Below, in pieces: positions 16,381-38,308 of a DNA stretch of 64,000 nucleotides (within the stretch, counting starts at the first letter, position 1; each line of letters starts with the position of its first letter). Below the pieces are notes generated by a model. That model was not told the origin of the DNA. It made no database searches and was given only the letters and a program-made list of their open reading frames with translations. Location: the sequence record MN882542; one strand, 5' to 3'. This DNA is from Escherichia phage JN01. Made by a program: the position numbers and the translations under genes.

Positions 16381-17166
16381 ATGGGTATTGTAAAAATCAT
16401 CAATGGGGACATCTTCTCCGCATTTGATAAAGGTAAGTTTGATATCATTGGTCACGGTTGCAACTGTATGAATTTAATGGGTGCAGGTATCGCTGACAAG
16501 GTTTCTAAACTTTACCCAAAAGCATATGAGACCGATACAGAAGTTTATCTGTATGCAGGTGGTATAGGCCACAAACCCTGTGAAAATTTACTAGGCAATT
16601 TCTCTGTAGCACGTTTAGAACAAGGCCGTATAGCTAACCTTTACACTCAGCTTAAGACTGGTAACGATGCCCGATACAGTGCTTTAGAATCATCTTTGAA
16701 ACAACTTAACAGATACTGTGAAGTTAATCAGTTGAAGAAAGTTGGGTTACCTATGATTGGTGCAGGTATCGGTGGACTAGACCCTCAAGCCGTCACAGTT
16801 ATCATTAATCAGGTGATGAAGAGTGTAGATGTGTATCTGTATGTCTACGAAGGAGAGATGTACCACAAGTTACGCTCAGGTTGGAAGAACTACTGTGAAC
16901 CAGAATACTTTGCAGGTGTAGTAGTGTTCACTGATGATGCAGTTACCCTCTTCAGACGAAGAAAAGGTAAGATACATCAAAGTAACCCTCCGGTTGAAAA
17001 GATGTCTCTAAGTAACGCTCTAGTTACCCACCTGTCGAAGAGCAATCACAGAATTGCAGTAACATTTGGCAGTGATGCAGATACATATATCTATGCAAGA
17101 ACTGATGAGGATGTTGAGGAAATTTTCTCTTCACCGGAAGTTACCTTCTTAGACGCAAAAAACTAA
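16381..17166 (+). CDS. macro-domain-like protein (ADP-ribose binding/processing), tentative
   Basis: N-terminal INGDIFSAF...DIIGHGCNCMNLMGAGIA resembles macro-domain GDIT...D-IVNAAN...GGGV-AI pattern; 261 aa. Confidence 0.45.
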   Translation: MGIVKIINGDIFSAFDKGKFDIIGHGCNCMNLMGAGIADKVSKLYPKAYETDTEVYLYAGGIGHKPCENLLGNFSVARLEQGRIANLYTQLKTGNDARYSALESSLKQLNRYCEVNQLKKVGLPMIGAGIGGLDPQAVTVIINQVMKSVDVYLYVYEGEMYHKLRSGWKNYCEPEYFAGVVVFTDDAVTLFRRRKGKIHQSNPPVEKMSLSNALVTHLSKSNHRIAVTFGSDADTYIYARTDEDVEEIFSSPEVTFLDAKN

Positions 17167-17204
17167 GAAACTCTGTAGAATATTCACAATAGACTAAGCC
17201 TTTC

Positions 17205-17250
17205 TTATCTGGTAAATTTTTCAGGTAAGGAGGGCTTTTTTATTTCAGGA
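17205..17250 (+). terminator. candidate terminator after macro-domain gene
   Basis: Imperfect inverted repeat ending GGAGGGC followed by TTTTTTATTT. Confidence 0.35.
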
Positions 17251-17420
17251 TTGTGCAGGTAGTGTTCTGGACAGAAATCTGTAGAGAGAATTTTGAACTC
17301 CAAAGAGAAAATTCATTTTCAAACTGTGCAGGTAATCTCCAAAGAGCTTTTTCATTTTCAAAACGTGCAGACCCCGCTCAGGTCGGGCAAGAAAAATCAT
17401 TTTAGAATTGTGCAGGTAGG
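17240..17420. repeat. four direct repeats, consensus about TTTCATTTTCAAANTGTGCAGGTA
   Basis: Copies near 17240, 17311, 17351, 17396 in an ORF-poor stretch upstream of the early-region promoter. Confidence 0.6.
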
Positions 17421-17594
17421 TGGGTGTAGGTGGGGATGTCGCCATTTCTCACAAGGCTACCACATCTGAAAAGAGAAGTCAACAGAAAAATTTGTAGCGG
17501 ATTGAAAAATAATTCTTGATTGTAGTTCTGTTTTGTGGTAGTCGCGTGCGCCCGTTTCATTACATTTTTGCCAAAAATATTTTTAAAATTTTTA

Positions 17595-17623
17595 TTGACT
17601 CCTCGAACGGGTTTTTATAGTAT
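17595..17623 (+). promoter_or_regulatory. candidate sigma70-type early promoter
   Basis: TTGACT, 17 bp spacer, TAGTAT; then conserved leader with TAGGAGA RBS before 17677. Confidence 0.5.
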
Positions 17624-17676
17624 TTGCATCAGACGGGGCGACAAGCCCGATAGCCTTAAACTAGGAGAATCTAAAA

Positions 17677-17883
17677 ATGCTATACGGTCGTGAATTGATG
17701 GTTACAACTAACGTTAACACAAATGTAAAACGTTTTTACATGCAAATTTGTGGCGTATGGTCTAGAATATCAGAAGCTGATTATTGCAACTATGTAGAAA
17801 CGGCAATCAACTCTGATTGTTATCTTACAAGGAATACTAAAAAATTTACGAGACAGACAGCAGTTTATTACTACGATATCTAA
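17677..17883 (+). CDS. hypothetical early protein
   Basis: 68 aa ORF behind conserved leader/RBS. Confidence 0.5.
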   Translation: MLYGRELMVTTNVNTNVKRFYMQICGVWSRISEADYCNYVETAINSDCYLTRNTKKFTRQTAVYYYDI

Positions 17884-17971
17884 TAAAGTACTTTACAAGG
17901 GGTTTAAAAGTTGATATCTTAAGCCCCAGATAAAGAGCTTTATCAACAACCTTAAACTAGGAGATTCAAAA
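17884..17971 (+). promoter_or_regulatory. intergenic cassette type 1 (promoter overlapping stem-loop, conserved leader and RBS)
   Basis: TTTACA, 17 bp, TATCTT; stem GGGGTTTAA...TTAAGCCCC; then AGATAAAGAGCTTTA...CCTTAAACTAGGAGATTCAAAAATG. Confidence 0.55.
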
Positions 17972-18352
17972 ATGGCATATCGTGCACCTAAATTCATCAA
18001 TAAAGACAACTTCCGCAACGCACTGGAAAAATCACTTGACGAGAATTTTACAGGTCAGATTATTGTTGTTCACGCATTCAATTTTAAGTATGACATTAAC
18101 GGGAACAGAATCAACCATTACACGGCAACCATGTTAGATGGTGCGCTTTCAAGTGAAAAAGCCGTACTGAATGCGCTTGCTGGACGTGGTAAAAACCTGA
18201 TAAGATGCGATAAGAGACGTTATCAAGGTGGCGCATATGGTTATGATGATGCTGTTTACCATCTTGAAAATATGGGCTATTCAGTGGAGAAAGCTGGAGC
18301 GTCTCAAATAATCGGTAGTGATGGTTATGTGACAATTTTCAAAATTAACTGA
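17972..18352 (+). CDS. hypothetical early protein
   Basis: 126 aa ORF with conserved start context aaaATGGC. Confidence 0.55.
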   Translation: MAYRAPKFINKDNFRNALEKSLDENFTGQIIVVHAFNFKYDINGNRINHYTATMLDGALSSEKAVLNALAGRGKNLIRCDKRRYQGGAYGYDDAVYHLENMGYSVEKAGASQIIGSDGYVTIFKIN

Positions 18353-18440
18353 TAAAGTACTTTACAAGGGGCTTATAGTTCGATAAAGTAAGCCCCAGAT
18401 AAAGAGCTTTACCACTCAATCCTAAATTGGAGATTCTAAA
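18353..18440 (+). promoter_or_regulatory. intergenic cassette type 1
   Basis: TTTACA-17-TAAAGT with stem GGGGCTTAT...AAGCCCC; conserved leader and AGGAG/TGGAG RBS. Confidence 0.55.
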
Positions 18441-18698
18441 ATGGCTATTATCAAAAACGTTGTAATTACTGCAAAAACTCGCGATGACGCTCGCATCATG
18501 GCGAAAAAGTTAGGCGGGAAAGTTGTTGACAACGGAAAACAATCTGCTGTAAGATGGGGCGTGAAGGCTGATAAACAACTAACCTTAAAACGCAGTTCAA
18601 ACAATCTTTTTAAAGGTGTAAAATCACTCGGTAAAGTGAACGTGTTTACCAAAAAAGGCTATAAAATGCACTTATCATTAACTGGCAATTTAATCTGA
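18441..18698 (+). CDS. hypothetical early protein
   Basis: 85 aa basic ORF. Confidence 0.55.
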   Translation: MAIIKNVVITAKTRDDARIMAKKLGGKVVDNGKQSAVRWGVKADKQLTLKRSSNNLFKGVKSLGKVNVFTKKGYKMHLSLTGNLI

Positions 18699-18788
18699 TA
18701 AAGTACTTTACATGGGGCTTAAAAGCTGATATCTTAAGCCCCAGATAAAGAGCTTTACCACTCAATCCTTAAACTAGGAGATTCAAAA
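18699..18788 (+). promoter_or_regulatory. intergenic cassette type 1
   Basis: Near-identical copy of 17884..17971 (TTTACA-17-TATCTT, GGGGCTTAA stem). Confidence 0.55.
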
Positions 18789-19301
18789 ATGAAAACTGTA
18801 GACGCTACCTTTGAAGTTGTAAAAGAAAAATTCACCATTATTTATGAAGCTATTAATTGCTTTGAAGCAAGCCATAATCTTGATAATTGGAAGTTTACAG
18901 ATGACCATCAAGGCGGCGTGACTGTTAAAAATCCCAACTGTCAGCGTAATGATTTTAAATATGCAATCCCTTTACATTACAGCCTTAAACAGCTTTCAAG
19001 TGACTATGCAAAACAAGGCCGGGAAAATCCATCAAAAGAGGCTTACATCAGCTTACAGAAAGAACTAGAAAGAGATTTGGATGCTTCAGAGTATAACATT
19101 GCCGCTAAAGTTGTGGATGCCAACGGTAAAACGATTTTAGACAGTTTTTATATTGGTTACGCTTTCGATTGGTGCTACAGTGACGGCGATGATTTAGATG
19201 ACAGGCTAAAAGAGGAAGTGAACAACGCAGACGCAGAATCTGAAGTATTAGAACGCTTGGAAGCATTAAAAGATTCAGTGATGAATATCTTTAAGGACTA
19301 A
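18789..19301 (+). CDS. hypothetical early protein
   Basis: 170 aa acidic ORF. Confidence 0.55.
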   Translation: MKTVDATFEVVKEKFTIIYEAINCFEASHNLDNWKFTDDHQGGVTVKNPNCQRNDFKYAIPLHYSLKQLSSDYAKQGRENPSKEAYISLQKELERDLDASEYNIAAKVVDANGKTILDSFYIGYAFDWCYSDGDDLDDRLKEEVNNADAESEVLERLEALKDSVMNIFKD

Positions 19302-19392
19302 ATAGACCTCTTTACACGGGGCTAACAAGCTGATATGATAGCCCCAGATAAAGAGATTTATCAAATTAACCCTTAAACTAGGAGATTCTAAA
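19302..19392 (+). promoter_or_regulatory. intergenic cassette type 1 variant
   Basis: TTTACA-17-TATGAT with stem GGGGCTAAC...AGCCCC; conserved RBS. Confidence 0.5.
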
Positions 19393-19689
19393 ATGAAATT
19401 ATCAAATAAAGTTAGGGAAAACCTTAGCAAATTACTCAATAAAATTGATTTTATCGAGACATCAAGAAATAGTCATGATGTTATGGAATGGTTACACGGC
19501 AAAATAAAAGGCCGTCGTGTAGTGATTTGCTTATGGAACAGTTGCAGGGAGTATAAAAAACCTGTATTGCAAGTTAATATATACGATAATACTTTTAAAA
19601 GTCCTGTTAAATCTAAAAGTGATTTATTAGAATCTTATGAGATAACTGTAAATGGCAAGGTATCACGTAAAGAGGTAACACCATGTTAA
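19393..19689 (+). CDS. hypothetical early protein
   Basis: 98 aa ORF. Confidence 0.55.
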   Translation: MKLSNKVRENLSKLLNKIDFIETSRNSHDVMEWLHGKIKGRRVVICLWNSCREYKKPVLQVNIYDNTFKSPVKSKSDLLESYEITVNGKVSRKEVTPC

Positions 19690-20015
19690 TGATGGGTATC
19701 ACTGCAATCATTGCCATTATAGCACTTTATAAGGCTTACAGCGCATATAATTTGGCAAGTAAGGCAATCACGCAGCAGGTCAATAATAACCTTGTAATGA
19801 GCTTTCTGGAGCGTTTAAGCGATGAACAAATAAAACGGTTAGAAATGAGCTTCAGATTTCAATCAAAAACTTATCAAATCAGCGACATTTTCAAAGATGA
19901 TTTTCAGCTTGTCGATGATTATAACTCTCTGATAAATGCTTTAAATATCAGTGATTTAAAAGATTATCATGCTGTAATAGTTCAAGAATTGAGCAAACGA
20001 AAAAATTCCTCTTGA
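19683..20015 (+). CDS. hypothetical membrane protein
   Basis: 110 aa; hydrophobic N-terminus (MGITAIIAIIALY). Confidence 0.5.
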   Translation: MLMMGITAIIAIIALYKAYSAYNLASKAITQQVNNNLVMSFLERLSDEQIKRLEMSFRFQSKTYQISDIFKDDFQLVDDYNSLINALNISDLKDYHAVIVQELSKRKNSS

Positions 20016-20105
20016 TTTTGGTTTTTAAAACAAGTAAATTACTAATCAACGGGGAGGGAATGACCTTCCCCACTAAGTAAAGTCCTTAAACTAGGAGATT
20101 CGAAA
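20016..20105 (+). promoter_or_regulatory. intergenic cassette type 2 (promoter, then leader stem-loop GGGGAGGG/CCTTCCCC, then RBS)
   Basis: TTGATT, 17 bp, TAAATT; leader ACTAATCAACGGGGAGGGAATGACCTTCCCCACTAAGTAAAGTCCTTAAACTAGGAGATTC. Confidence 0.55.
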
Positions 20106-20378
20106 ATGTATACTACTAACAATGGTCGCACTTTGAACGTAACCCTGCGCCACTATGTGAACGGTGTAATGCACTTCGAGGATTTACAAGCTGAACAACA
20201 TATATTGGATTGGCAACTTGCAGGACTCCAAAAAACTGCTACCGGATACGGGAAAAAGATTCCAACTAGCTGGAAAGTATACTACGAAGGACGTTTGCGC
20301 AGAATTTATCAAGATGTATGCAGCAATAGCGCATCAAGTTACATCATGGTAAAAGGTAAAAAATTACACTTAGTATAA
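20106..20378 (+). CDS. hypothetical early protein
   Basis: 90 aa ORF. Confidence 0.55.
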   Translation: MYTTNNGRTLNVTLRHYVNGVMHFEDLQAEQHILDWQLAGLQKTATGYGKKIPTSWKVYYEGRLRRIYQDVCSNSASSYIMVKGKKLHLV

Positions 20379-20463
20379 AGTACTTTACAAGGGGCTTATA
20401 GTTCGATAAAGTAAGCCCCAGATAAAGAGCTTTATCACTCAATCCTAAATTGGAGATTCTAAA
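20379..20463 (+). promoter_or_regulatory. intergenic cassette type 1
   Basis: Copy of 18353..18440. Confidence 0.55.
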
Positions 20464-20868
20464 ATGGCTATTAATAATCGTGAGTTATCAATCTTAAAAG
20501 CACGTTTGACCGTTAACCGGATTAATGTTATTACGTCATCAGCACCTGATGAGACATTGCACAACATTATCGGGAAGATTCAAAGTGTTATCTTAGACGT
20601 TGAAAGCGTAAAAAACTCACTGGCTGACGTTGCAGCAGGTATCACGCTAGACGGTGCACAATATGAAATGGCTGACATGTTAGGCAAATCTAAGGTAATG
20701 AATAAAGAGCTTGATTTAAAAATGTTTCGTTTTGCTGTTAAAGTGTGGCTATCTGTCGAGTATGACGCAAATTTTGCAATCGCTGACTTTTTTGCAACAT
20801 GGTTGCAACGTAATTTAACAAATCATGATTTTCGTGATATCTGCGATGTAATTTACGCAGAACTATAA
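20464..20868 (+). CDS. hypothetical early protein
   Basis: 134 aa ORF. Confidence 0.55.
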   Translation: MAINNRELSILKARLTVNRINVITSSAPDETLHNIIGKIQSVILDVESVKNSLADVAAGITLDGAQYEMADMLGKSKVMNKELDLKMFRFAVKVWLSVEYDANFAIADFFATWLQRNLTNHDFRDICDVIYAEL

Positions 20869-20971
20869 AAATTTTTCTTGATTTTGGTTTTTAAAACAAG
20901 TAAATTACTAATCAACGGGGAGGGAAGGACCTTCCCCACTAAGTAAAGTCCTTAAACTAGGAGATTCAAAA
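20869..20971 (+). promoter_or_regulatory. intergenic cassette type 2
   Basis: Copy of 20016..20105 with one base change in the stem-loop. Confidence 0.55.
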
Positions 20972-21172
20972 ATGGCTATTATTAACGGCTTAAACATTGA
21001 AACTACTCACATCAAAGACATTAAAGTCGGTGATGTAGTCCTTTCCCACGGCGTAGAAAAAACTGTCACTGCAAAGGATATCAAAGAGGATTCTTTCATG
21101 GGTAGAACTCTCTTCGGTGATTCTTATTGCTTAGGTTATCTTGCAGTTTTAAAAGTTGTCAAAAATAACTGA
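20972..21172 (+). CDS. hypothetical early protein
   Basis: 66 aa ORF. Confidence 0.5.
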   Translation: MAIINGLNIETTHIKDIKVGDVVLSHGVEKTVTAKDIKEDSFMGRTLFGDSYCLGYLAVLKVVKNN

Positions 21173-21267
21173 TAAAGTACTTTACAAGGGGCTTAAAAGC
21201 TGATATCTTAAGCCCCAGATAAAGAGCTTTACCACTAAATCAAGTCCTTAAACTAGGAGATTCAAAA
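21173..21267 (+). promoter_or_regulatory. intergenic cassette type 1
   Basis: TTTACA-17-TATCTT with GGGGCTTAA stem; conserved leader and RBS. Confidence 0.55.
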
Positions 21268-21810
21268 ATGAAATGCTTTCACGGTACTACTCAAGAAAAC
21301 TTCATCAACTTAATTAATAACGGTGATAAACCATCAGGCGCATGGAATTGTTCGGATATGGATGGCAATTTTTACGTTTATCCAGAAAATAAAATCTATG
21401 GCGACGATGAGGAAGAAATAATCTCTGAAGGCATTCAACAAGCTTTAGGCAATGCCACTATAACGGCAGCTTTTCAGATGAAAACTCAAAATATTGTTAT
21501 CTTAGAACTTGATATCCCAGAGGATGAGTTGAATGATGATTATTCTTGTGATAATATGTCGAGCGTAGCAAGTTTTACAGAATACTTCGATTTAAATTGG
21601 ATTAAAAAGGTTTACGTAACCGAGTTTAATGCAATGTTTTCACCTTTTTGTCTTCCTTCACTGGATAACCCAAATTTAAACTATCTTGAGGAGACATTAG
21701 AACTACTTGCTAAAAGTGTTCAACAGTCGGACAGTATTCAGGTTTTTTGTGACATCATGGATACACTGACAGGAAACATTACAGAAGAGGATTTAAAGAG
21801 CTTTTTATAA
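21268..21810 (+). CDS. hypothetical early protein
   Basis: 180 aa acidic ORF. Confidence 0.55.
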   Translation: MKCFHGTTQENFINLINNGDKPSGAWNCSDMDGNFYVYPENKIYGDDEEEIISEGIQQALGNATITAAFQMKTQNIVILELDIPEDELNDDYSCDNMSSVASFTEYFDLNWIKKVYVTEFNAMFSPFCLPSLDNPNLNYLEETLELLAKSVQQSDSIQVFCDIMDTLTGNITEEDLKSFL

Positions 21811-21876
21811 TAACCTATACAATCACCTTATAAATACTGATTATCCCCTCATAGGGGCTTTTAGGAGGCTTAAATC

Positions 21877-22119
21877 ATGCTTACAACCATTTACCTCATC
21901 CTTTCTATTTGTAATGGTCATTCATGCGATTTTAAAGGGCTTGAGGAGTTTACAGGGAGTAAAGAAAATGCCGTTCAAGTGTGCCAGATAGCAAGGCAAG
22001 ACTATCCCGCCAGTGATGATATACAATGTTACTTTAAGACAGAAGATGAAGACGGTATCTATTTTGACAGCGTAGATGGTCAATATGAAATTATCATTGA
22101 AAAGACTAGACAAGCCTGA
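21877..22119 (+). CDS. hypothetical protein
   Basis: 80 aa ORF, hydrophobic N-terminus, TAGGAGG RBS. Confidence 0.5.
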   Translation: MLTTIYLILSICNGHSCDFKGLEEFTGSKENAVQVCQIARQDYPASDDIQCYFKTEDEDGIYFDSVDGQYEIIIEKTRQA

Positions 22120-22198
22120 TAAAAGTCTGTAAATTGTCAATCAACGGGAGGTAATAACCTCCCCACTAAGTAAAGTCCTTAAACTAGGAGATTCTAAA
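22120..22198 (+). promoter_or_regulatory. intergenic cassette type 2 variant
   Basis: TAGACA-17-TAAATT; stem GGGAGGTAATAACCTCCCC; conserved RBS. Confidence 0.5.
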
Positions 22199-22540
22199 AT
22201 GGCTTATGTAACCGTAATTACCGATAAAGCTGGCTCATCTTGGTCAACTCAAGTAAGTGATAAGATGTCACCTATGCAGTGCCTAAAATACTTTGAGCAA
22301 TGGAACAAAGGCGAGAATGTCAGCCCCTTTCAAGTCATGCAGATTATCCATACAGATAACGAAGGGAATAAAACTGTTTTGAATAGTGAGTACTACGCAA
22401 CCCGATTTGAAACGAGATGTAAAGCAATGAAGCTTTTGCGTGAGTCTGGTTATTCTCATATCGCCTCACTAATCTGGGATGACCTGCTAAAAAATCAGCG
22501 TATCAGCTATGTAAAACCTGAAAAAATATTCATCAGTTAA
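22199..22540 (+). CDS. hypothetical early protein
   Basis: 113 aa ORF. Confidence 0.55.
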   Translation: MAYVTVITDKAGSSWSTQVSDKMSPMQCLKYFEQWNKGENVSPFQVMQIIHTDNEGNKTVLNSEYYATRFETRCKAMKLLRESGYSHIASLIWDDLLKNQRISYVKPEKIFIS

Positions 22541-22760
22541 TCAATAACTTACAAAAAACTTTTTAAAAAGTATTGACAATACCCCTTGACATTGGTAAAT
22601 TTGTTCGAGGGGGTTTATCTAAAAGGGATTAACTTAAAAGATTCTTTATAGATAAGCTTAAAAAATTGCTTGCAATCAGATATCAAAACAAGTAAATTAC
22701 TAATCAACGGGAGGGATAACCTCCCTACTAAGTAAAGTCCTTAAACTAGGAGATTCAAAA
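22541..22760 (+). promoter_or_regulatory. extended intergenic region ending in a type 2 cassette
   Basis: Tandem TTGACA boxes near 22572 and 22586, then TTGCAA-17-TAAATT, stem GGGAGGGATAACCTCCC and RBS. Confidence 0.45.
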
Positions 22761-23291
22761 ATGAACAAGTTCAAAGCTATCAACTTCATTCGTTCAAATA
22801 GTGTTATGTCAAAGCCTGTTAAAGATACCTATGAATTTCGTTGCAATGGGGTGCATTTTGCAACCATCACCAAATCAGAAAACGGAGCTTATTACATCCA
22901 TCGCCGTAATGTTGCAACCGTTGTTGTCTCTCACTTTATGCAAGCTGTCGCGGAACTTCTCCCGATGTTTTTAGGGCTTTACTTGGATGAGTGTAAAAAC
23001 GTTCACAATCACGTTAAAAACCTTTTAAACAGCTATAAAATGGCTTATGAACGTTCTATCAAGTCATTGAACAAGTTTTACAACGCACCTGAAAACACTG
23101 TGTCAATAGCCTATGGTGTAAGCGGTGAAATGGTAAACTTATCCAATGTGGAAGAAATCAAGCTGCATGATTTACGCCCTAACGGTTACGCTAAAACCAT
23201 CGGTGAAGGTTTAACTTTCAATATCAAGAACTTAGAAAAAACTTTAAAAGATATTGAAAAAGATATTGACGAGACAATCAAAAGTCTGTAA
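22761..23291 (+). CDS. hypothetical early protein
   Basis: 176 aa ORF. Confidence 0.55.
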   Translation: MNKFKAINFIRSNSVMSKPVKDTYEFRCNGVHFATITKSENGAYYIHRRNVATVVVSHFMQAVAELLPMFLGLYLDECKNVHNHVKNLLNSYKMAYERSIKSLNKFYNAPENTVSIAYGVSGEMVNLSNVEEIKLHDLRPNGYAKTIGEGLTFNIKNLEKTLKDIEKDIDETIKSL

Positions 23292-23357
23292 ATTGTCAAT
23301 CAACGGGGAGGGAATGACCTTCCCCACTAAGTAAAGTCCTAAACTGGAGTTATCAAG
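23292..23357 (+). promoter_or_regulatory. intergenic cassette type 2 variant
   Basis: TAAATT box and GGGGAGGGAATGACCTTCCCC stem; divergent RBS GGAG. Confidence 0.45.
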
Positions 23358-23621
23358 ATGGAAAACGTCGAACTGACCACACTTTTACAAATTGCAACCG
23401 ACAAAGAGGATGTAGCATTATTCCACCGTATCGAAAGTGATTTGTTCAATGGTGAAATCATTAAAGAATCTTACGAAGTGGTCGGATTCAAAGATGGTAA
23501 ATCATTTGGATTCTTTGACCTCGACAAAGGCAACGCTATTACAAAGTATGATGTTTTATCTTGTGAGATTCTGACAAAATACAACGAAAAAAGACTTGCA
23601 ACATACGCCAACATGCAGTAA
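23358..23621 (+). CDS. hypothetical early protein
   Basis: 87 aa ORF. Confidence 0.5.
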   Translation: MENVELTTLLQIATDKEDVALFHRIESDLFNGEIIKESYEVVGFKDGKSFGFFDLDKGNAITKYDVLSCEILTKYNEKRLATYANMQ

Positions 23622-23686
23622 ATTACTAATCAACGGGAGGGATGACCTCCCTACTAAATAAAGTCCTTAAACTAGGAGATTCTAAA
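23622..23686 (+). promoter_or_regulatory. intergenic cassette type 2
   Basis: TTGCAA-17-TAAATT overlapping the end of the previous ORF; stem GGGAGGGATGACCTCCC; conserved RBS. Confidence 0.5.
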
Positions 23687-23935
23687 ATGGCAACTATCCG
23701 CGCAATTGTAAATTCTTATGGCTGCTACACTCTGGACGCTAAATTTGATATTGGTGGGACTGATGAGTGTTTCGAACTGGTGAAGACAGTCATTAAACAA
23801 GTTATCCCAGACTATAACCCTACTGATGACTTCTGGAAAGATGCAGTAAAAGAGGCGTTGAACGATGAATATCATTACCATTATTGGGGTGACTTGATTG
23901 TCTCACTGTACTACAATAAACAAGGTTGCAACTAA
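23687..23935 (+). CDS. hypothetical early protein
   Basis: ORF-track start 23642 lies inside the cassette; conserved cassette ATG at 23687 gives MATIRAIV. Confidence 0.5.
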   Translation: MATIRAIVNSYGCYTLDAKFDIGGTDECFELVKTVIKQVIPDYNPTDDFWKDAVKEALNDEYHYHYWGDLIVSLYYNKQGCN

Positions 23936-23961
23936 TCGACGCAACGGGGCAAATAGCCCCA

Positions 23962-23996
23962 GATACCTTTACAGCCCCTTAAATGGGGCTTTTTTA
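23962..23996 (+). terminator. intrinsic terminator closing the rightward early block
   Basis: AGCCCC-ttaaat-GGGGCT hairpin followed by TTTTTTAC. Confidence 0.6.
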
Positions 23997-25534
23997 CGTC
24001 TTATCAAATCCTATACAACCCTTTTCCTTTCCTTTCCAGAATCTTACTAGACCTTAAAAAGCAATAACTTTATAGCCTTTTACTAAGTCAATTAATTGGC
24101 CTTGTTAATAATCCCTTAAATAAAAGACAATAACCCCAGAAAGGGGGTAACCCATTTAAACGCCCTATAAAGCCCTATAACGGCCTTTTTAACCTAACTT
24201 AAGGGATTGCATTAACTAACCTTAAAAAGCCCTTTATAAAGCTTCTCAGAGCCTTAAAAGAATCTTATAAGGGTGTAAGCTTTATTATCTCGTTAGCTAT
24301 CTTGTGAACTACTAAAAAGGGCTTGTTAGTGTCTTAAAAGTATGTTATAGGGGCTATAAAGTTGCTTAAAAGTAGCTTAAAAGTTACGTAAATGCTAGCC
24401 CCCTTAACATTTTCTTAACAATTTCTTAACAAACCCTACATAGTTATGCTTTTAAGACACTTGTTAGCAACTTGTTAGCCCCTTGTTAAATCTCTGTTAA
24501 AACCACGTAAAAGCCTTGTAAGAGCCTTTGACATAGCCTTTAAAGCTCCTGTAAAGCCCTATAAAGAGCTTTCTACATAGTTGGTGTGTAATTACTAGAA
24601 AGAGACTAAAAAGAGCTTATAAGGAGCTATAAAGGGCTTTTAAGAGGGCTATTTAAAGGGTCACTAAGAGGGAAAGGGAACGATAAGAAAAGAGATAGTG
24701 ACCATGTTAATAGCTTGTTAAAAAGATTAAACACTTGTTAGGAACTTGTTAATTATCTTAACAAAATAACTCTTTAAAATTAACTTGTTAGCTCTTGTTA
24801 GTCATCTGTTAAGACTCTGTAAAGACCATGTATCAACTGTTAAGAAACTGTTAAGTTCTTGTTAGTTCTGTTAAGAATCTGTTAAGACCTCTGAAGAGAT
24901 GTTAAGAGGATGTAGTAGCTGTTAAGAGATTGTTAAGGATATTTTAAAATTCTGCAAAGGGATGGTAAGGGAGCTGTTAAGGGCTACCAAGCAGATATAC
25001 ATCCTAATCAGATATTTTTCAGTTCCTTCAAAGACCCTAAAAAATGACTTGATAGTCCTATTTTATAAAAATTTTAAAATTCTGAATAATTACCTAGACA
25101 GTCTTCTAAAAATACAGGCATAAACAGGCTTATAAGATACCTTGTTAGTACCGTGTTAGACCTTGTGAGATAAGGTCTGTAAAGATATTCCTGTTAAGTT
25201 TGTTAAAACAGTCTATATAGAGGCTTAGTATTTCCTAGTGAACACCTATAGAGGGTATCATAGCTGACATAGAGATTAAGAGGTGTATAGGAGCTTCTAA
25301 GAGGGTGTAGAGGTATGGTTAAGGTGATTGTATAGGTTGTTAAGAAGGCTTGTTAGAAGAGTGTTTAGAAGGGCTATACAGAGGGGCTATTAAGACCACT
25401 AGATAGATACTAAGATACTATATAGTACTATATAACTATATAGAGAGTAAGATTAAGAAGGATGTTAAGAAGGGTAGATATTTTATTCACATATGATGGT
25501 GACCCAGAGGTTGGGACAACCGATAAAATTTTAT
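23997..25534. repeat. ORF-free island densely packed with short motifs (C/T)TGTTA(A/G), CTTAAAAG, CTATAAAG
   Basis: No ORF of 60 aa or more on either strand; 30 or more TGTTA-type motifs, about 11 bp apart between 24735 and 24990. Confidence 0.7.
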
Positions 25535-35234: not shown

Positions 35235-35308
35235 CTCTGTTTAGCTCAGCTTGGTAGAGCGTTCCGTTTGGGGCGGTAAGGCCGGAGGTTCAAGTCCTCC
35301 AACAGAGA
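35235..35308 (+). tRNA. tRNA-Pro(TGG)
   Basis: Hand-folded cloverleaf, anticodon loop TTTGGGG, T-arm GGAGGTTCAAGTCCTCC, CCA encoded. Confidence 0.7.
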
Positions 35309-35318
35309 CCAAATTAAT

Positions 35319-35392
35319 GTTCCAGTAGACAAAATGGTAAAGTCACCACTCTTTCAAAGTGGATATTTGAGGGTTCAAATCCCTTCTGGAAT
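35319..35392 (+). tRNA. tRNA-Glu(TTC)
   Basis: Acceptor GTTCCAG/CTGGAAT, anticodon stem-loop CCACT-CTTTCAA-AGTGG, T-loop TTCAAAT, CCA encoded. Confidence 0.7.
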
Positions 35393-35403
35393 GCCAGTTT
35401 TGA

Positions 35404-35476
35404 CAGAAGACCAATTACAGCAAGTTTAATCTTATTCATCTGACACGAAATCGGACAAAGAAGAGATTTGGTCTGG
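35404..35476 (+). ncRNA. stem-closed structured element A (Y-RNA-like candidate)
   Basis: 5' arm CAGAAGACCAA pairs with 3' arm TTGGTCTGG; conserved ACAGCAA box after 5' arm. Confidence 0.35.
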
Positions 35477-35487
35477 TCATTAAGAAT

Positions 35488-35561
35488 TGCGGGTATAGAG
35501 AAAGGGCGTCTCACATGTCTCATTAGCATGGTATCGGCAGGTTCGACTCCTGCACCCGCCT
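35488..35561 (+). tRNA. tRNA-Met or Ile2 (CAT), slightly atypical acceptor/D junction
   Basis: Anticodon stem-loop CATGT-CTCATTA-GCATG, T-arm GCAGGTTCGACTCCTGC, CCA encoded; 1-72 pair mismatched. Confidence 0.55.
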
Positions 35562-35570
35562 CCAATTTTG

Positions 35571-35630
35571 CAGAAGACCGTATTCAGCAACAAACTACTT
35601 TTTGCGGATAAAAGAAAAAACACGGTCTGG
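35571..35630 (+). ncRNA. stem-closed structured element B (Y-RNA-like candidate)
   Basis: 5' arm CAGAAGACCGT pairs with 3' arm ACGGTCTGG; the two bases beside GACC covary relative to element A (AA/TT vs GT/AC). Confidence 0.35.
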
Positions 35631-35641
35631 CAATGTATTAA

Positions 35642-35715
35642 GGTTAGGAAGCACATAAGGTATGTGCGGTCGCCTGTTAAGCGAATGGCACAGGGTTCGA
35701 ATCCCTGACTAACCG
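35642..35715 (+). tRNA. tRNA-Asn(GTT)
   Basis: Acceptor GGTTAGG/ACTAACC, anticodon loop CTGTTAA, T-arm CAGGGTTCGAATCCCTG, CCA encoded. Confidence 0.65.
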
Positions 35716-35727
35716 CCAAATTTAAAT

Positions 35728-35812
35728 GTGTCGTTATCCCGTAGATGGTAGCGGTGGGGACTGTAAATCCCTTGTCATTGAGACTCGGTAGGTTCGACTC
35801 CTACACGGCACA
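35728..35812 (+). tRNA. tRNA-Tyr(GTA), class II
   Basis: Anticodon stem-loop GGGGA-CTGTAAA-TCCCT, long variable arm, T-arm GTAGGTTCGACTCCTAC, CCA encoded. Confidence 0.7.
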
Positions 35813-35821
35813 CCAAATAAA

Positions 35822-35895
35822 GGTTATGTAGTTTAACTGGTTAAAATACTCCCCTGTCACGGGAGATGATGAGGGTTCAAATCCCTTCGTAACCG
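35822..35895 (+). tRNA. tRNA-Asp(GTC)
   Basis: Acceptor GGTTATG/CGTAACC, anticodon stem-loop CTCCC-CTGTCAC-GGGAG, T-loop TTCAAAT, CCA encoded. Confidence 0.7.
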
Positions 35896-35984
35896 CCAAA
35901 TTATAATAAGTATTTCAAAATGCTGTTTGAGAGGGCTATTTAGCCTCTCCCTTAAAGAGTTCTTACGAGTATTCTTTAAAGGAG

Positions 35985-36061
35985 CAGAAGACCAAATTCA
36001 GCAAGTACGTATGATATTTTCAAGCCAATTTAATTTTGAAAAAATTTAAAACTTGGTCTGG
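35985..36061 (+). ncRNA. stem-closed structured element C (Y-RNA-like candidate)
   Basis: 5' arm CAGAAGACCAA, ATTCAGCAA box, 3' arm TTGGTCTGG. Confidence 0.35.
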
Positions 36062-36074
36062 CTCAACAAATTTA

Positions 36075-36206
36075 CAGAAGACCGTTTACAGCAAAACTTA
36101 AACAATCTATTTCTCCGGTAAAGAAAAGGCGAAGGTTCGATTCCTTCACTCGGCAGGTGTCGAGTTGGTGTAATGGTAGCACTTAAGATGATAAACAACG
36201 GTCTGG
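36075..36206 (+). ncRNA. stem-closed element D with embedded tRNA-like module (YrlA-like Y RNA candidate)
   Basis: Arms CAGAAGACCGTT / AACGGTCTGG enclose hairpin TTTCT-CCGGTAA-AGAAA, T-arm GAAGGTTCGATTCCTTC, capped helix ACTCGGC-AGGT-GTCGAGT and D-arm GTGTAATGGTAGCAC. Confidence 0.45.
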
Positions 36207-36216
36207 TAATTATCTT

Positions 36217-36354
36217 TGTAGATAAGTTATTAAGCTTACCTGTGAGTATGCGACCACAAAGGGTGAAAGGGTAAATTCTAGATTTAAACCCAACAATGCA
36301 CATCGCTACAGACCTTAAGCAAGTCTGGGTAGCTTATCTACAAAGATAATTTAA
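36217..36354 (+). ncRNA. structured element E: 21 bp inverted repeat pair around a CAGACC...GGTCTG hairpin
   Basis: TTATCTTTGTAGATAA at 36221 and its reverse complement TTATCTACAAAGATAA at 36335; inner hairpin CAGACCTTAAGCAAGTCTGG. Confidence 0.3.
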
Positions 36355-36355
36355 T

Positions 36356-36428
36356 GGAAGTGTAGCAGAATGGTGATGCGGCAGACTTTTAATCTGACAG
36401 GCGATGGGTTCGAATCCCTCCACTTCTA
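36356..36428 (+). tRNA. tRNA-Lys(TTT)
   Basis: Acceptor GGAAGTG/CACTTCT, anticodon stem-loop CAGA-CTTTTAA-TCTG, T-loop TTCGAAT, CCA encoded; paralog of 38064..38135 with compensatory stem changes. Confidence 0.6.
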
Positions 36429-36435
36429 CCAATAT

Positions 36436-36509
36436 GGTTCAGTCGCAGATAAGGTAATGCAGGGGTTTCATAAGCCCTATGAATGTGGGTTCGATTCCCA
36501 TCTGAACCT
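36436..36509 (+). tRNA. tRNA-Met(CAT)
   Basis: Acceptor GGTTCAG/CTGAACC, anticodon stem-loop GGGGT-TTCATAA-GCCCT with three G-C pairs, T-arm GTGGGTTCGATTCCCAT, CCA encoded. Confidence 0.65.
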
Positions 36510-36513
36510 CCAA

Positions 36514-36586
36514 GCTGGTATAGTTAAGAAGGTTATAACACTCCCCTGATAAGGGAATATCGGTGGTTCGATTCCACCTACCAGTA
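36514..36586 (+). tRNA. tRNA-Ile(GAT)
   Basis: Acceptor GCTGGTA/TACCAGT, anticodon loop CTGATAA, T-arm GGTGGTTCGATTCCACC, CCA encoded. Confidence 0.7.
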
Positions 36587-36604
36587 CCAATTTCAATAAA
36601 GTTG

Positions 36605-36633
36605 TTGACATTGAGATGTGACTACTTTATAGT
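36605..36633 (+). promoter_or_regulatory. candidate sigma70-type promoter inside tRNA cluster
   Basis: TTGACA, 17 bp spacer, TATAGT. Confidence 0.5.
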
Positions 36634-36956
36634 AACTGAAAATAATTCAGCATATGTATAATTCAAACACCAATACATGAGCGTTAGACGTAACACAATG
36701 TGGGGAAATTTGTTGTACATATTCTGAATAGTTTTCGTTGCGTAGCGTCTATTTTGCAAATTTAAAATAAATGCAAACGACAATGTTTTTCTGGCAGTAG
36801 CTTGATAGGCTAAACACCAGTGAGGTCTTCCAATCCCTCATCAAAGAATTTGGCGTACTCGCCCACGGTATGATTAATAAGGTGGGCAACATTCTAAAGG
36901 GTATCCCTTATGGGGCTTGGCTTAAATGCAATGAGTACCCTTTAAAATGTTAATTA

Positions 36957-37035
36957 CGGGGCGTATCTCAGCGGTCTTCTAAACCGCCGTTAACCGAGTA
37001 AGTGGAGTATGCGGGTTCGAGTCCTGCCGCCTCGA
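36957..37035 (+). tRNA. atypical tRNA-like gene, Arg(TCT)-type anticodon loop, no recognisable D-arm
   Basis: Acceptor CGGGGCG/CGCCTCG, anticodon stem-loop GCGGT-CTTCTAA-ACCGC, T-arm GCGGGTTCGAGTCCTGC, CCA encoded; only 7 nt between acceptor and anticodon stem, 23 nt variable region. Confidence 0.4.
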
Positions 37036-37053
37036 CCAATTTTGGATGAAATC

Positions 37054-37401
37054 ATGAAAACTTGTATTAGGTGCAAACTTAGCAAGGATGAAAGTGATTT
37101 CTACATGAAAGATGGTAGGAGAACTCATTCATACTGTAAAAAGTGTGTTAATGAGCAAACCATAGAAAGACAAAGAGCACTTAAACTTTCAGCTATTGAG
37201 TACAAAGGTGGAGTTTGTCATGATTGTGGTAAAAGGTATCATCCAGCAGTGTATGACTTCCATCATTTGAATCCTTCAGAGAAAGATTTTAACATTGGTC
37301 ATAGAAAAAGTCTTAAGTTCTCTCAGGAGCTAAAGGACGAACTTGACAAATGTGTTTTGCTATGTTCAAATTGCCATAGGGTAAGACATGCAAAGTATTA
37401 G
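37054..37401 (+). CDS. HNH endonuclease (homing-endonuclease-like) inside the tRNA cluster
   Basis: CxxC...CxxC zinc pairs with HNH core DFHHLNPSEKDFNIGH...CSNCHRVRH; ORF-track start 37009 falls in the tRNA-like T-arm, ATG at 37054 preferred. Confidence 0.75.
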   Translation: MKTCIRCKLSKDESDFYMKDGRRTHSYCKKCVNEQTIERQRALKLSAIEYKGGVCHDCGKRYHPAVYDFHHLNPSEKDFNIGHRKSLKFSQELKDELDKCVLLCSNCHRVRHAKY

Positions 37402-37538
37402 TTAGCAGATTGCTTAGACGACCTTATCGGGTCTCCGTGTAAGGAGGTGGTCTGTATCTCATGTTTTCCAGAACATGTAAATAATCTGAGAAGGGGCTTT
37501 ACAGTGTTGTGAGAATACGGTAAGCTTCGAATTATAGT

Positions 37539-37618
37539 GTGGGACGATGTTAAGACTCTAAGGCATGAGCAACGGCCTCCAAAACCGTTTCAAAGTGGTT
37601 CAACTCCTCCGTCCCATG
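37539..37618 (+). tRNA. atypical tRNA-like gene, Trp(CCA)-type anticodon loop, oversized D region and weak T-stem
   Basis: Acceptor GTGGGAC/GTCCCAT, anticodon loop CTCCAAA in stem ACGG/CCGT, T-loop TTCAACT, CCA encoded; may be degenerate. Confidence 0.35.
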
Positions 37619-37633
37619 CCAAAGTCTTATTAG

Positions 37634-37721
37634 GGGTAGGTAGCGGCTAATGGTAGCCAAACTGTCTTGAAAACAGTTGCCACTGTAGAGATACGGTGAG
37701 GGTTCGACTCCTTTACTTACC
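37634..37721 (+). tRNA. tRNA-Ser(TGA), class II
   Basis: Anticodon stem-loop ACTGT-CTTGAAA-ACAGT, long variable arm, T-arm GAGGGTTCGACTCCTTT. Confidence 0.7.
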
Positions 37722-37879
37722 GCCTAATAAGATTTAAAGCCAAGCTTCATTCGGATGTTGCTTTGGTATCCCTCGTGTATTGTCGTACACACTGATAAAG
37801 CACCTAGTAGGTGTCACGGAGAAGAGATAATATCAAGCTCTCCAAAGGTTCTAGTCACCGGATTAAACAAGACTATGCA

Positions 37880-37908
37880 AAGACCTATTTAGGTCTTTTT
37901 AGAGGGCT
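37880..37908 (+). terminator. hairpin with T-tract inside tRNA cluster
   Basis: AAGACCTA-ttt-AGGTCTT followed by TTTAGAG; repeats the AGACC/GGTCT arm motif. Confidence 0.4.
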
Positions 37909-37979
37909 TCTAAGGTTATTACAGCTTGTTGTGGAACCTTGTTGCTTAGGTTCTTAGAAGTTCTCTAAAAAGATTTAAT

Positions 37980-38053
37980 GCACCTATAGCCCAACTGGTA
38001 GAGGCAGCAGACTTAGAATCTGCTCAGTGTGAGTTCGAATCTCTCTAGGTGTA
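37980..38053 (+). tRNA. tRNA with anticodon TAG (Leu by anticodon), short variable arm
   Basis: Anticodon stem-loop GCAGA-CTTAGAA-TCTGC, 3 bp D-stem, 5 nt variable loop, discriminator A, CCA encoded. Confidence 0.5.
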
Positions 38054-38063
38054 CCAAATTAAT

Positions 38064-38135
38064 GCAGGTGTAGCAAAATGGTTATGCGGCTGACTCTTAA
38101 TCAGTAAGACGATGGGTTCAATTCCCTCCACCTGT
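38064..38135 (+). tRNA. tRNA-Lys(CTT)
   Basis: Anticodon stem-loop CTGA-CTCTTAA-TCAG, T-loop TTCAATT, CCA encoded. Confidence 0.6.
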
Positions 38136-38144
38136 ACCAAACAT

Positions 38145-38218: not shown

Positions 38219-38226
38219 CCAATTAG

Positions 38227-38298: not shown

Positions 38299-38308
38299 TC
38301 CAAATTAA

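Follow-up and report, generated by a model that had tools for sequence, protein, structure and literature searches.

Repeated promoter–hairpin–ribosome-site cassettes before small genes beside the genome end of a Felix O1-like phage

Why is the same short element found again and again in front of small genes that are themselves unrelated? This question is raised by a block in the genome of Escherichia phage JN01 (MN882542), of which a stretch of 64,000 nucleotides (the window) was analyzed. The source phage is a Felixounavirus (Felix O1-like myovirus, Ounavirinae), and 253 records of Felixounavirus-type phages match the window at 60–95%. The block comprises 15 unrelated small ORFs, all on the + strand like the other block features described below, and lies between two intrinsic terminators on the same strand. 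The left one (17196–17237; a 17-bp stem with a T run behind it) ends the upstream operon and corresponds to t13 in Table 2 of the Felix O1 paper, while the right one (23973–23990) corresponds to t23; a scan of the + strand inside the block yielded no terminator-like site. A first-pass annotation had let the block end at 23690, but it extends to 23935, shortly before the right terminator. It adjoins the direct terminal repeat, and thus the physical genome end, at 24398–24988 (unstranded; mapped from phage I14.1, based on an exact repeat of 581 bp that PP892526.1 carries at its two ends), a location also described for early or host-takeover regions of other phages (PMC6873191). No Pfam family, PHROG with known function or structural match was found for any ORF of the block, and the host-takeover or anti-defense roles suggested for them in the first-pass annotation are candidate roles.

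Thirteen of the 15 ORFs are preceded by a cassette of about 90 bases combining promoter, hairpin and ribosome site, namely six of type 1, six of type 2 and one with the lead promoter. The six plus six cassettes of two types already reported are all present at their places and on the + strand only. The 13th cassette, P0 (17569–17676), stands before the first ORF and had been missed in the earlier count of 12; it consists of an AT-rich stretch, the promoter TTGACT-17-TAGTAT (17595–17623), a small GGGC/GCCC hairpin (17636–17648) and the shared ribosome-binding site (RBS). Read as a unit, a cassette would provide a host sigma-70 promoter, a hairpin rich in G and C, a leader that is conserved and unpaired, and, 8 nt before the ATG, a strong Shine–Dalgarno sequence. 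The 25-nt leader/RBS CCTTAAACTAGGAGATTCwAAAATG gave 10 matches at up to three mismatches (none in 100 shuffles), and three further copies follow the variant CCTAAAyTGGAG. Conservation into the first codons, also noted before, is narrower than described, since ATGGCTATTA is common to three genes only and ATGGC(T/A) is found in six of 13.

Behind P0 lies an ORF of 68 aa (17677–17883, phrog_5293; missing in six of 15 related loci), followed by a type-1 cassette of subtype a (17884–17971; TTTACA-17-TATCTT within the extended hairpin, shared RBS) with a 126-aa ORF (17972–18352, phrog_4495), one of subtype b (18353–18440; TTTACA-17-TAAAGT, RBS variant CCTAAATTGGAG) with an 85-aa ORF (18441–18698, phrog_5089), and a second copy of subtype a (18699–18788; −35 at 18707–18712, −10 at 18730–18735, predicted start at about 18743; full hairpin −28.1 kcal/mol, z −4.6) with a 170-aa ORF (18789–19301, phrog_4190). 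The subtype c cassette (19302–19392; TTTACA-17-TATGAT plus TG extension, inner stem 7 bp, outer stems 7 + 5 bp) precedes a two-gene module without internal cassette (19393–20015), in which ORFs of 98 aa (19393–19689) and 110 aa (19683–20015) overlap. The first type-2 cassette (20012–20105, promoter variant A), with TTGATT (20012–20017), a 17-bp spacer, TAAATT (20035–20040), a hairpin at 20051–20071 and the shared RBS, leads a 90-aa ORF (20106–20378, phrog_3436); its −35 includes the stop codon of the upstream ORF. A subtype b type-1 cassette (20379–20463; matching the copy at 18352–18450 with 99% identity across 99 nt) and another type-2 cassette of variant A (20878–20971; matching the copy at 20001–20120 with 93% identity across 120 nt) stand before ORFs of 134 aa (20464–20868, phrog_4327) and 66 aa (20972–21172, phrog_3623), respectively. 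A subtype a type-1 cassette (21173–21267) opens the second two-gene module (21268–22119), composed of a 180-aa ORF (21268–21810), a CCCCT/AGGGG hairpin with AGGAGG, and an 80-aa ORF (21877–22119). The two cassette-less ORFs are hence those at 19683, overlapping the ORF at 19393, and at 21877, which has the short hairpin and AGGAGG only. The remaining cassettes are of type 2: variant C (22107–22198; TAGACA-17-TAAATT, −35 within the upstream ORF, hairpin GGGAGG/CCTCCC) before a 113-aa ORF (22199–22540, phrog_4318), variant Q (22670–22760; TTGCAA-17-TAAATT, hairpin GGGAGG/CCTCCC) before a 176-aa ORF (22761–23291, phrog_4725; missing in two of 15 loci), again variant C (23266–23357; TTGACG-17-TAAATT, RBS variant CCTAAACTGGAG) before an 87-aa ORF (23358–23621, phrog_7022; missing in six of 15 loci), and variant G (23596–23686; TTGCAA-17-TAAATT) before an 82-aa ORF (23687–23935, phrog_4559), whose start was corrected to 23687 from the 23642 of the ORF finder. 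In the last two cassettes the stop codon of the upstream ORF lies within the −10. A strong orphan consensus promoter, TTGACA-17-TAAATT (22573–22601), has no ORF behind it and is kept in all related loci.

The type-1 cores (CTTTACAnGGGG ... CCCCAGATAAAGAG) start at 17891, 18360, 18706, 19310, 20383 and 21180, and in each of them a TTTACA-17-TAnnnT promoter is enclosed by a covarying three-helix hairpin of about 60 nt. All six sites scored 9–10 of 12 in a promoter scan with a spacer of 17 bp, and four carry a TG extension. The 9-bp stem initially ascribed to this type is found in three copies, the others having 7–9 bp, and all six extend to a three-helix hairpin of about 20 bp (folding energies −20.7 to −28.1 kcal/mol, z −3.2 to −4.6). 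Among 38 distinct inner-stem sequences, 97.6% of cells are paired, in alignments that were fitted to the model structure, and four of nine pairs are changed on both sides. The covariation score of 0.356 exceeds the 0.117 of shuffled alignments (0 of 500 reach it) and the values obtained with the partners slid (at most 0.061). At one pair, 15 of the 38 sequences have a U-G wobble, and since these wobbles fit the sense strand, this appears to be the strand that folds. Both hexamers and the 17-bp spacing are kept alongside the stem, even across differing stem sequences, which argues that the promoter is under selection as well. As the predicted start lies just past the inner right arm, only RNA reading through from upstream could form the hairpin. 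The cassette hairpins have no U tract and are therefore not canonical terminators. In read-through RNA, the type-1 hairpin would most likely attenuate transcription, offer a processing site or stabilize the 3′ end, and thereby insulate neighboring modules.

The type-2 cores start at 20034, 20900, 22129, 22692, 23288 and 23618. By direct reading, TTGnnn or TAGACA-17-TAAATT is present in all six, two of which reach the threshold of the promoter scan. The leader stem first assigned to the whole type, GGGGAGGG/CCTTCCCC, is confined to three copies, the other three having GGGAGG/CCTCCC. With alignments likewise fitted to the model, 96% of cells are paired; since the G runs find C-run partners in several registers, covariation is weak. 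The hairpin follows the predicted start at a distance of 2–3 nt and would thus form a 5′-terminal stem-loop, a layout that protects E. coli mRNAs against 5′-end-dependent decay.

The block may accordingly be described as a putative series of modules, in each of which a cassette is joined to a single gene or, in two cases, to a pair of genes. As every cassette contains a promoter and a Shine–Dalgarno sequence, we propose that each small gene is transcribed and translated separately upon DNA entry. There is no phage-encoded RNA polymerase (PMC3185647). The label "early" given to the region at first is in line with the promoter sequences, but timing in Felix O1 is mixed: in noisy end-point RT-PCR data, the maximum is reached at 5 min by ORFs 16, 20, 21 and 22 and at 25 min by ORFs 14, 17, 19 and 23. 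Mapped transcript ends were not found in the literature for any Felixounavirus.

A possible but clearly less probable explanation is that the type-1 hairpins are mainly RNase III-type processing sites, at which long read-through transcripts begun at the lead promoter would be cleaved to give monocistronic mRNAs with a protective 3′ hairpin, the embedded promoters being secondary. The interrupted helix of about 20 bp in three segments corresponds in size to RNase III substrates, and formation solely in read-through RNA, wobbles marking the sense strand and the missing U tract would all suit such a role. In phage T7, the RNase III processing hairpins between early genes at a genome end measure about 20 bp and contain internal loops; these sites are promoter-free and their cleavage is proven. 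The type-1 hairpins are similar in length and in their place within a run of putatively early genes, but they carry a promoter, and processing is a candidate function. The conservation of hexamers and spacing together with the stem argues against a merely secondary promoter, and the type-2 hairpins (6–8 bp) are below RNase III size.

If expression from each cassette is one part of our proposal, exchange of modules is the other. Over the window plus 17 related loci, covariance models detected 101 copies of type 1 and 97 of type 2, all on the + strand and all within the block; the remainder of the window and Shy from 45 to 88.7 kb contained none. Type 1 is present in 287 phage records at 1537 places. 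Comparison with 15 related genomes (indels of at least 40 nt) located gains and losses of genes at the cassettes: there are seven indel loci, and every outer endpoint lies within cassettes. Indel lengths are often exactly one cassette period (e.g., 327–332 nt for the ORF at 23358), deletion endpoints occupy equivalent positions in two cassettes, and the junction promoters are chimeric, the gene at 23687 receiving after deletions the 5′ part of the deleted gene's cassette. The crossover points are scattered over the −10, the hairpin and the leader/RBS. Across phages, the same gene family is found behind type 1 or type 2 (23/16 for 17972, 5/26 for 22199, 33/3 for 21268). In Shy and HMD-P10, a 52-aa ORF is inserted before the gene at 20106 and flanked by a duplicated cassette tail and RBS, and in an Erwinia phage homologous genes retain type-1 cassettes, with one module moved. 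Selection for intact genes would likewise favor intergenic endpoints.

Since they amount to 13 direct repeats of about 50–100 nt, the cassettes are proposed to be substrates for homologous recombination or template switching, which would delete, insert, duplicate and re-pair whole modules while leaving genes unbroken, as proposed for the PeSLs of T4. Orthologous cassettes are about as conserved as genes (89.7% vs. 88.8%), and 147 of 167 cassettes (88%) have their best match at their own position, 20 at a non-orthologous one, so exchange between cassettes seems to be occasional rather than frequent. With 20 gene families behind cassettes in about 42 genomes and a gene order mostly conserved in Felixounavirus, "hyperplastic", as the region had been called, is too strong a term. 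The same divergence at gene rate, together with the small repertoire and stable order, would also be expected if the repeats were merely strongly selected expression signals, with gene-cutting deletions lost and intergenic DNA consisting mostly of cassettes. In phage Michonne, the junction of one duplication (ATG|CTTTACA) resembles microhomology and not cassette homology, which points the same way. We nevertheless regard a lack of any recombination role as rather unlikely in view of the single-period deletions with equivalent endpoints, the chimeras of both parents at junctions, the changing cassette types behind one gene and the duplicated sequence around the 52-aa ORF.

Still less probable is that the type-1 palindrome is an operator, at which a dimeric phage protein on the inverted repeat spanning −35 and −10 would shut the early promoters after a few minutes. 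The inverted repeat coincides exactly with the promoter, and a putative transcriptional regulator is annotated elsewhere in related genomes. However, the arms differ among copies of one genome (subtypes a, b and c) and yet stay complementary, and on the opposite strand the U-G wobbles would correspond to A-C mismatches, leaving unequal half-sites; a folded strand is therefore favored over a sequence-specific protein site. Although gene-sized units between folded repeats resemble integron cassettes and the PeSL authors brought up this possibility for T4 (PMC2839356), dedicated integron-like capture by an own recombinase or a structure-specific nuclease acting on the hairpins is very improbable, as crossovers are not single-site and no integrase-like gene lies in or adjoining the block.

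The modular organization favored here has its closest counterpart in the T4-type PeSLs (Arbiol et al., 2010, PMC2839356; Comeau et al., 2014, PMC4122927), an analogy drawn in the first-pass annotation and supported by all features that sequence can address (composite anatomy; indel ends inside cassettes). PeSLs likewise combine a sigma-70-like promoter with a GGGG...CCCC stem-loop, carry a Shine–Dalgarno sequence and ATG at the 3′ end, cluster among small uncharacterized genes and bound indels. Their stem-loops lie between −35 and −10, cover the −10 or follow closely behind it (PMC2839356); those of JN01, across spacer and −10 (type 1) or just after −10 (type 2), match two of these positions. 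JN01 differs in that it belongs to the Ounavirinae and not to the T4 group, has only two well-defined types with one common 25-nt leader/RBS, encloses the entire promoter in the type-1 hairpin and confines its cassettes to a single block beside the genome end instead of several regions. Moreover, promoter activity, terminator activity and mini-circles are known from experiment in T4-type phages, and the JN01 elements from sequence. In PAK_P1-like Pseudomonas phages, distant relatives of Felix O1, five to six near-identical 41-nt sigma-70 promoter repeats (TTGACA-N17-TAgAAT) are interspersed with small genes in a putative early region (Henry et al., 2015, PMC4309531), but they differ in sequence, and no hairpin, shared RBS or role in gene turnover is described for them. 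The host-takeover module of Bacillus phage SPO1 (PMC6873191, citing Stewart et al., 1998) is likewise terminal, densely filled with small early genes that each have promoters and ribosome sites typical of high expression; it differs by its Gram-positive host, its position within a 12.4-kb terminal region and many proven host targets, and no repeated hairpin cassette is reported for it.

For Felix O1 itself, the 57-bp and 39-bp direct repeats (Whichard et al., 2010, PMC3185647) are the same elements, namely the type-1 core and the type-2 promoter variant B. Only two copies of each were given there, uninterpreted and absent from the promoter list, and the mode of transcription regulation was stated to be unknown (PMC3185647). 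Elements previously on record only as direct repeats (Felix O1, 2010) would thus, as we consider likely, mark a PeSL-like accessory early-gene region, in which modules of cassette and gene may allow both individual expression and the exchange of modules.

A megablast search with the region 17575-23690 matched 253 phage records at 60-95% identity, nearly all of them from Felix O1-type phages of E. coli, Salmonella, Shigella or Citrobacter; by classification, the records used for comparison are Ounavirinae, mostly Felixounavirus. The block of small genes is the counterpart of Felix O1 ORFs 14/15-23, which lie between the Felix O1 terminators t13 and t23. The corresponding sites at 17196-17237 and 23973-23990 are the sole plus-strand terminator-like sites found in the region by a terminator scan. 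The first-pass annotation had located the block correctly and ended it too early, at 23690, since it extends to 23935 and is followed by the terminator at 23973-23990. Its description of cassettes upstream of 15 unrelated small ORFs holds for the ORFs themselves (named here by their start): all 15 are on the plus strand, no pair matches at a blastp E-value of 1e-4, and a separate PHROG (15 in all) is assigned to each, the last gene starting at 23687. Two of them, ORFs 19683 and 21877, are not preceded by a cassette, each being paired with its upstream neighbor in a module of two genes.

Sequence reading, a repeat finder and motif searches over the 64 kb agreed on six type-1 cores, in which a TTTACA-17-TAnnnT promoter lies within a three-helix hairpin (17891, 18360, 18706, 19310, 20383, and 21180), and on six type-2 cores, in which a hairpin follows a TTGnnn-17-TAAATT promoter (20034, 20900, 22129, 22692, 23288, and 23618). 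These 12 cassettes, each 85-95 nt long, are at the sites previously reported, and the lead cassette before the first ORF (17595-17676) comes in addition as a thirteenth. Every copy is on the plus strand and none was found elsewhere in the 64-kb window. Fixed-spacing patterns for complete type-1 and type-2 cores recovered one and zero copies, respectively, because stem lengths vary, and were replaced by regular expressions and covariance models. The shared leader with its ribosome-binding site (RBS) precedes 13 start codons; its 25-nt block occurs ten times with at most three mismatches (zero times in shuffled sequences), and three further RBS copies are of the variant CCTAAAyTGGAG. All 13 cassettes have a 17-bp promoter spacer, and nine of them passed a 9-of-12 sigma-70 promoter scan, a test at the sequence level only. 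The scan was also passed by a consensus promoter (TTGACA-17-TAAATT) at 22573-22601 which is not followed by an ORF and is conserved throughout the 15 Felixounavirus loci. The stretch with this orphan promoter (22573-22700) could be what is left of a cassette or could give rise to a small RNA. In Citrobacter phage Michonne, a 46-aa ORF is situated between the homologs of ORFs 22199 and 22761.

In the type-1 cassettes, an AT-rich stretch with the upstream stop codon (TGATAAAGTACTTTACA) stands just before the -35 element of a promoter composed of TTTACA, the 17-bp spacer and TATCTT, TAAAGT or TATGAT, with a TG extension in four copies. The G/C stem over this promoter described in the first-pass annotation is present, and constitutes only the inner helix of a larger hairpin. 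From the upstream stop codon onward, the RNA folds into an outer helix of 5-7 bp, a middle helix of 5-7 bp and an inner helix of 7-10 bp, with folding energies of -20.7 to -28.1 kcal/mol (z-scores of -3.2 to -4.6). The hairpin covers the spacer and the -10 element, the -35 element being placed in its left arm and the -10 element in its loop and right arm. The predicted transcription start, 7 nt past the -10 element (near 18743 in the third copy), lies directly after the inner right arm. Since RNA started at a type-1 promoter would lack the left arms, these coordinates, as opposed to mapped ends, suggest that the hairpin is formed only by read-through RNA coming from upstream.

A covariance model of the type-1 hairpin found 101 copies in the window and 17 related loci, all of them within the block; none was found in the remainder of the window or at positions 45-88.7 kb of phage Shy, which jointly cover a whole genome. 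In an alignment of 38 distinct sequences fitted to the model, 97.6% of the cells were paired, and both sides change in four of nine pairs, for example from G-C to U-A in Erwinia phages. The covariation score of 0.356 compares to 0.117 for shuffled alignments, 0 of 500 of which reach the observed value, and to at most 0.061 when pairing partners were slid. The outer helices also vary in step, ATAGATTTCTTTA occurring together with TAAAGAGATTTAT. Such an inverted repeat over a promoter might be read as the operator of a protein. One of the pairs, though, is U-G in 15 of the 38 sequences, and wobbles of this kind can be accommodated only by a folded sense strand, which favors an RNA (or top-strand DNA) structure and argues against an operator. 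BLAST matches to the type-1 cassette were obtained at 1537 places in 287 phage records, ranging from coliphages to Erwinia phages. The enclosure of a promoter in a covarying 60-nt hairpin is what exceeds a routine case.

All six type-2 promoters consist of TTGATT, TTGCAA, TTGACG or TAGACA, a 17-bp spacer and TAAATT. In four copies, the -35 or the -10 element overlaps the end of the upstream ORF, and in two the stop codon is the TAA of TAAATT. The hairpin, built of GGGGAGGG/CCTTCCCC or GGGAGG/CCTCCC, begins about 10 nt after the -10 element, corresponding to 2-3 nt after the predicted start. In E. coli, a 5′-terminal stem-loop with few unpaired nucleotides protects mRNAs such as ompA from 5′-end-dependent decay. 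The type-2 hairpin has the same layout and might, by analogy, act similarly. The type-2 covariance model found 97 copies, likewise confined to the block, with 96% of the stem cells paired; covariation was weak, because runs of G and runs of C can pair in several registers. MAFFT alignment of the raw hairpins followed by RNAalifold yielded only 3-4 pairs, since indels in the stems put the copies out of register, and model-based alignments were used instead. Canonical intrinsic termination can be rejected for both types, as none of the 12 cassette hairpins qualified in the terminator scan, the stems not being followed by a U tract. Screening 17000-25200 with the Rfam 15 covariance models yielded nothing relevant at E-values up to 1.

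The window was compared with 15 Felixounavirus loci, with Michonne (Mooglevirus) and with one Erwinia phage (Kolesnikvirus). Gene order is mostly conserved, and the block comprises between 10 genes (Felix O1) and 19-20 (Michonne). Indels of at least 40 nt were listed from pairwise alignments, and gaps split by alignment noise were merged, resulting in seven loci among the 15 genomes. The cassette-associated gene turnover that the first-pass annotation had expected was borne out by this comparison of gene content, as every outer indel endpoint lies within a cassette. The events are the loss of ORF 17677 (three distinct junctions), the joint loss of ORFs 17972 and 18441, the insertion of a 52-aa ORF before ORF 20106, the loss of ORFs 20972 to 21877, the loss of ORF 23358, the joint loss of ORFs 22761 and 23358, and the insertion, behind the lead promoter, of a 62-aa ORF. 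In many cases the length of an indel matches a single cassette period, for example 327-332 nt for ORF 23358.

The cassettes at such junctions are chimeric. Where ORF 23358 is missing, gene 23687 has the promoter part normally found before 23358, and where both 22761 and 23358 are missing, it has that of 22761. A duplicated cassette tail with its RBS borders the 52-aa insertion, and in one of the deletions of 17677 the lead-cassette hairpin is joined to the type-1 leader of 17972. The cassette subtype at a given gene also differs among phages: the type-2 promoter variants A and B occur at ORFs 20106 and 20972 in all four combinations, and in about 42 genomes and fragments type 1 and type 2 precede the same family in 23 and 16 cases for 17972, 5 and 26 for 22199, and 33 and 3 for 21268. 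The Erwinia phage has seven homologous genes at 29-49% identity, three of which retain type-1 cassettes, and its 19393 module has been relocated to a position after 21268. In Michonne (locus L010, 7008-7835), a type-1 cassette and the ORF 18441 homolog are duplicated in tandem as an exact 430-bp repeat, leaving two cassettes back to back. The junction of this duplication, ATG|CTTTACA, is a cassette boundary and does not fall at cassette homology; it may represent a recent duplication or an assembly artifact.

The designation of the region as hyperplastic was an overstatement. In the whole sample of about 42 genomes, 20 families are found behind the shared RBS, 13 of them in the window, and a scan of IMG/VR retrieved fragments of genomes of this kind, with few additional gene families. 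Mean identity is 89.7% for orthologous cassettes and 88.8% for genes. Rampant gene conversion between cassettes can be rejected, since for 147 of 167 cassettes the best match is the copy at their own position. All these observations imply that exchange between cassettes is occasional and that the block is an accessory region of moderate variability rather than an open-ended one.

Phage I14.1 (PP892526.1, filed as Tequintavirus although it is a Felixounavirus) carries an exact direct terminal repeat of 581 bp at both ends, which maps to 24398-24988 of the window, and in several other records the sequence has been opened at one of its two edges. The physical end of the genome is therefore located at 24398-24988, and the window crosses the junction of the two genome ends. 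Some 460 bp separate the cassette block from the terminal repeat, and the block is the last coding region before the right-hand copy, a position reminiscent of the terminal early or host-takeover regions of other phages (PMC6873191). The non-coding segment 24000-24500, which immediately precedes the terminal repeat and extends over its start, contains many short repeats (CTTAAAAG and TTGTTAG; repeat family D10) and could hold packaging or replication signals. On the other side of the block, 3-4 copies of a repeat of about 40 nt (family D9, 17240-17420), each ending in (A/T)TGTGCAGGTA, lie in the 510-nt non-coding stretch from the upstream terminator to the lead promoter, where some records annotate tiny ORFs. 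The gene directly upstream of the block (16381-17166) is conserved in 2790 phage records and codes for a macro-domain phosphatase that is a relative of T4 tk.4, with 34.8% identity across the N-terminal 60% of the protein. Further along, 25 tRNA genes form several plus-strand clusters at 35235-40890, as is typical of Felix O1-like phages.

The evidence for an early timing of the block is weak and mixed. In end-point RT-PCR of Felix O1, transcripts of ORFs 16, 20, 21, and 22 were maximal at 5 min and those of ORFs 14, 17, 19, and 23 at 25 min, and a literature search retrieved no transcript mapping or transcript ends for Felixounavirus. Since the phage is reported to have no RNA polymerase of its own (PMC3185647), the consensus host promoters of the cassettes would be expected to be active upon entry of the DNA.

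The genes of the block are small and vary modestly in presence and absence among relatives. A Pfam search yielded no match for its ORFs, their PHROG matches are all of unknown function, and a PDB sequence search with the three largest ORFs gave nothing meaningful. Homologs of the 180-aa ORF (21268-21810) were found in Ounavirinae only; its AlphaFold model is poor (pLDDT 60.6) and gave no fold match at E-values up to 0.001. A preprint on gene essentiality in phage Bas63 (PMC11482910) scores gene 107 as conditionally essential when E. coli S17-1 is the host, and suggests for it a weak RNA 2′-phosphotransferase-like fold. If gene 107 is bas63_0107, it is the ortholog of ORF 21268, for which the poor model did not confirm this resemblance. 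In the description given by the Bas63 essentiality screen, this genome region is non-essential or mixed. In the ECP2307 and HMD-P10 records (L003, 3012-3308; L013, 2308-2930 and 4069-4269), homologs of 19393, 19683, and 20972 are labeled tail sheath, tail tube, and prohead scaffold, almost certainly annotation errors.

The first-pass annotation had likened the cassettes to the promoter-early stem-loops (PeSLs) of T4-type phages. PeSLs are composed of an upstream stop codon, an AT-rich stretch, a sigma-70 promoter, a GGGG...CCCC stem-loop in one of five positions, a Shine-Dalgarno sequence and the ATG; they are overrepresented among small variable genes and delimit indels, and experiments on them have revealed promoter activity, terminator activity, and mini-circles (PMC2839356, PMC4122927). 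The cassettes described here share the composite build ending in a Shine-Dalgarno sequence and ATG, the sigma-70-like hexamers with consensus spacing, the placement of the stem-loop (over the spacer and -10 element in type 1, downstream of the -10 element in type 2), the surrounding small variable genes of unknown function, and the insertions, deletions, and replacements in relatives that are bounded by cassettes with chimeric junctions. An analogous system is thus supported in silico. Since PeSLs belong to T4-type phages whereas the present genome is a Felixounavirus of the Ounavirinae, the cassettes are best filed as PeSL-like, probably working like PeSLs without being T4 PeSLs.

Elements of the cassettes have surfaced in earlier work. 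In the Felix O1 genome paper (PMC3185647), the type-1 core and a single type-2 promoter appear only as "direct repeats," two copies each, and are left out of the promoters given there. In the AYO145A record, the block carries two annotated promoters. In the distantly related PAK_P1-like phages, repeated early promoters of 41 nt have been described (PMC4309531). The paper on phage wV8 mentions neither promoters nor repeats, and our literature search found no publication on these cassettes, their hairpins or a link to gene turnover in Ounavirinae.

A more far-reaching reading, which we regard as rather improbable, is that type 1 serves two purposes throughout the subfamily Ounavirinae, being conserved from coliphages to Erwinia phages: one and the same stretch of 60 nt would be a promoter in DNA and a structured insulator or processing signal in read-through RNA. 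The 13 direct copies would give rise to gene-sized circles during infection and thereby move accessory early genes between co-infecting phages, a recombinase-free gene-cassette system independent of that of T4.

Felix O1-like phages are used for Salmonella typing, biocontrol, and therapy. The cassettes provide a map of 13 probable early promoters with their predicted transcript starts for a group in which the control of transcription was called unknown in the original genome paper (PMC3185647). The roughly 22 small genes constitute a candidate set to be screened for host-takeover or anti-defense activity, and as whole modules are gained and lost naturally, the cassette modules may offer safe sites for engineering. 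The cassettes would also show that the design of promoter, hairpin, and RBS, together with the cassette-guided shuffling of accessory early genes, is not peculiar to T4-type phages and is found again in another, unrelated myovirus group that is in wide use.
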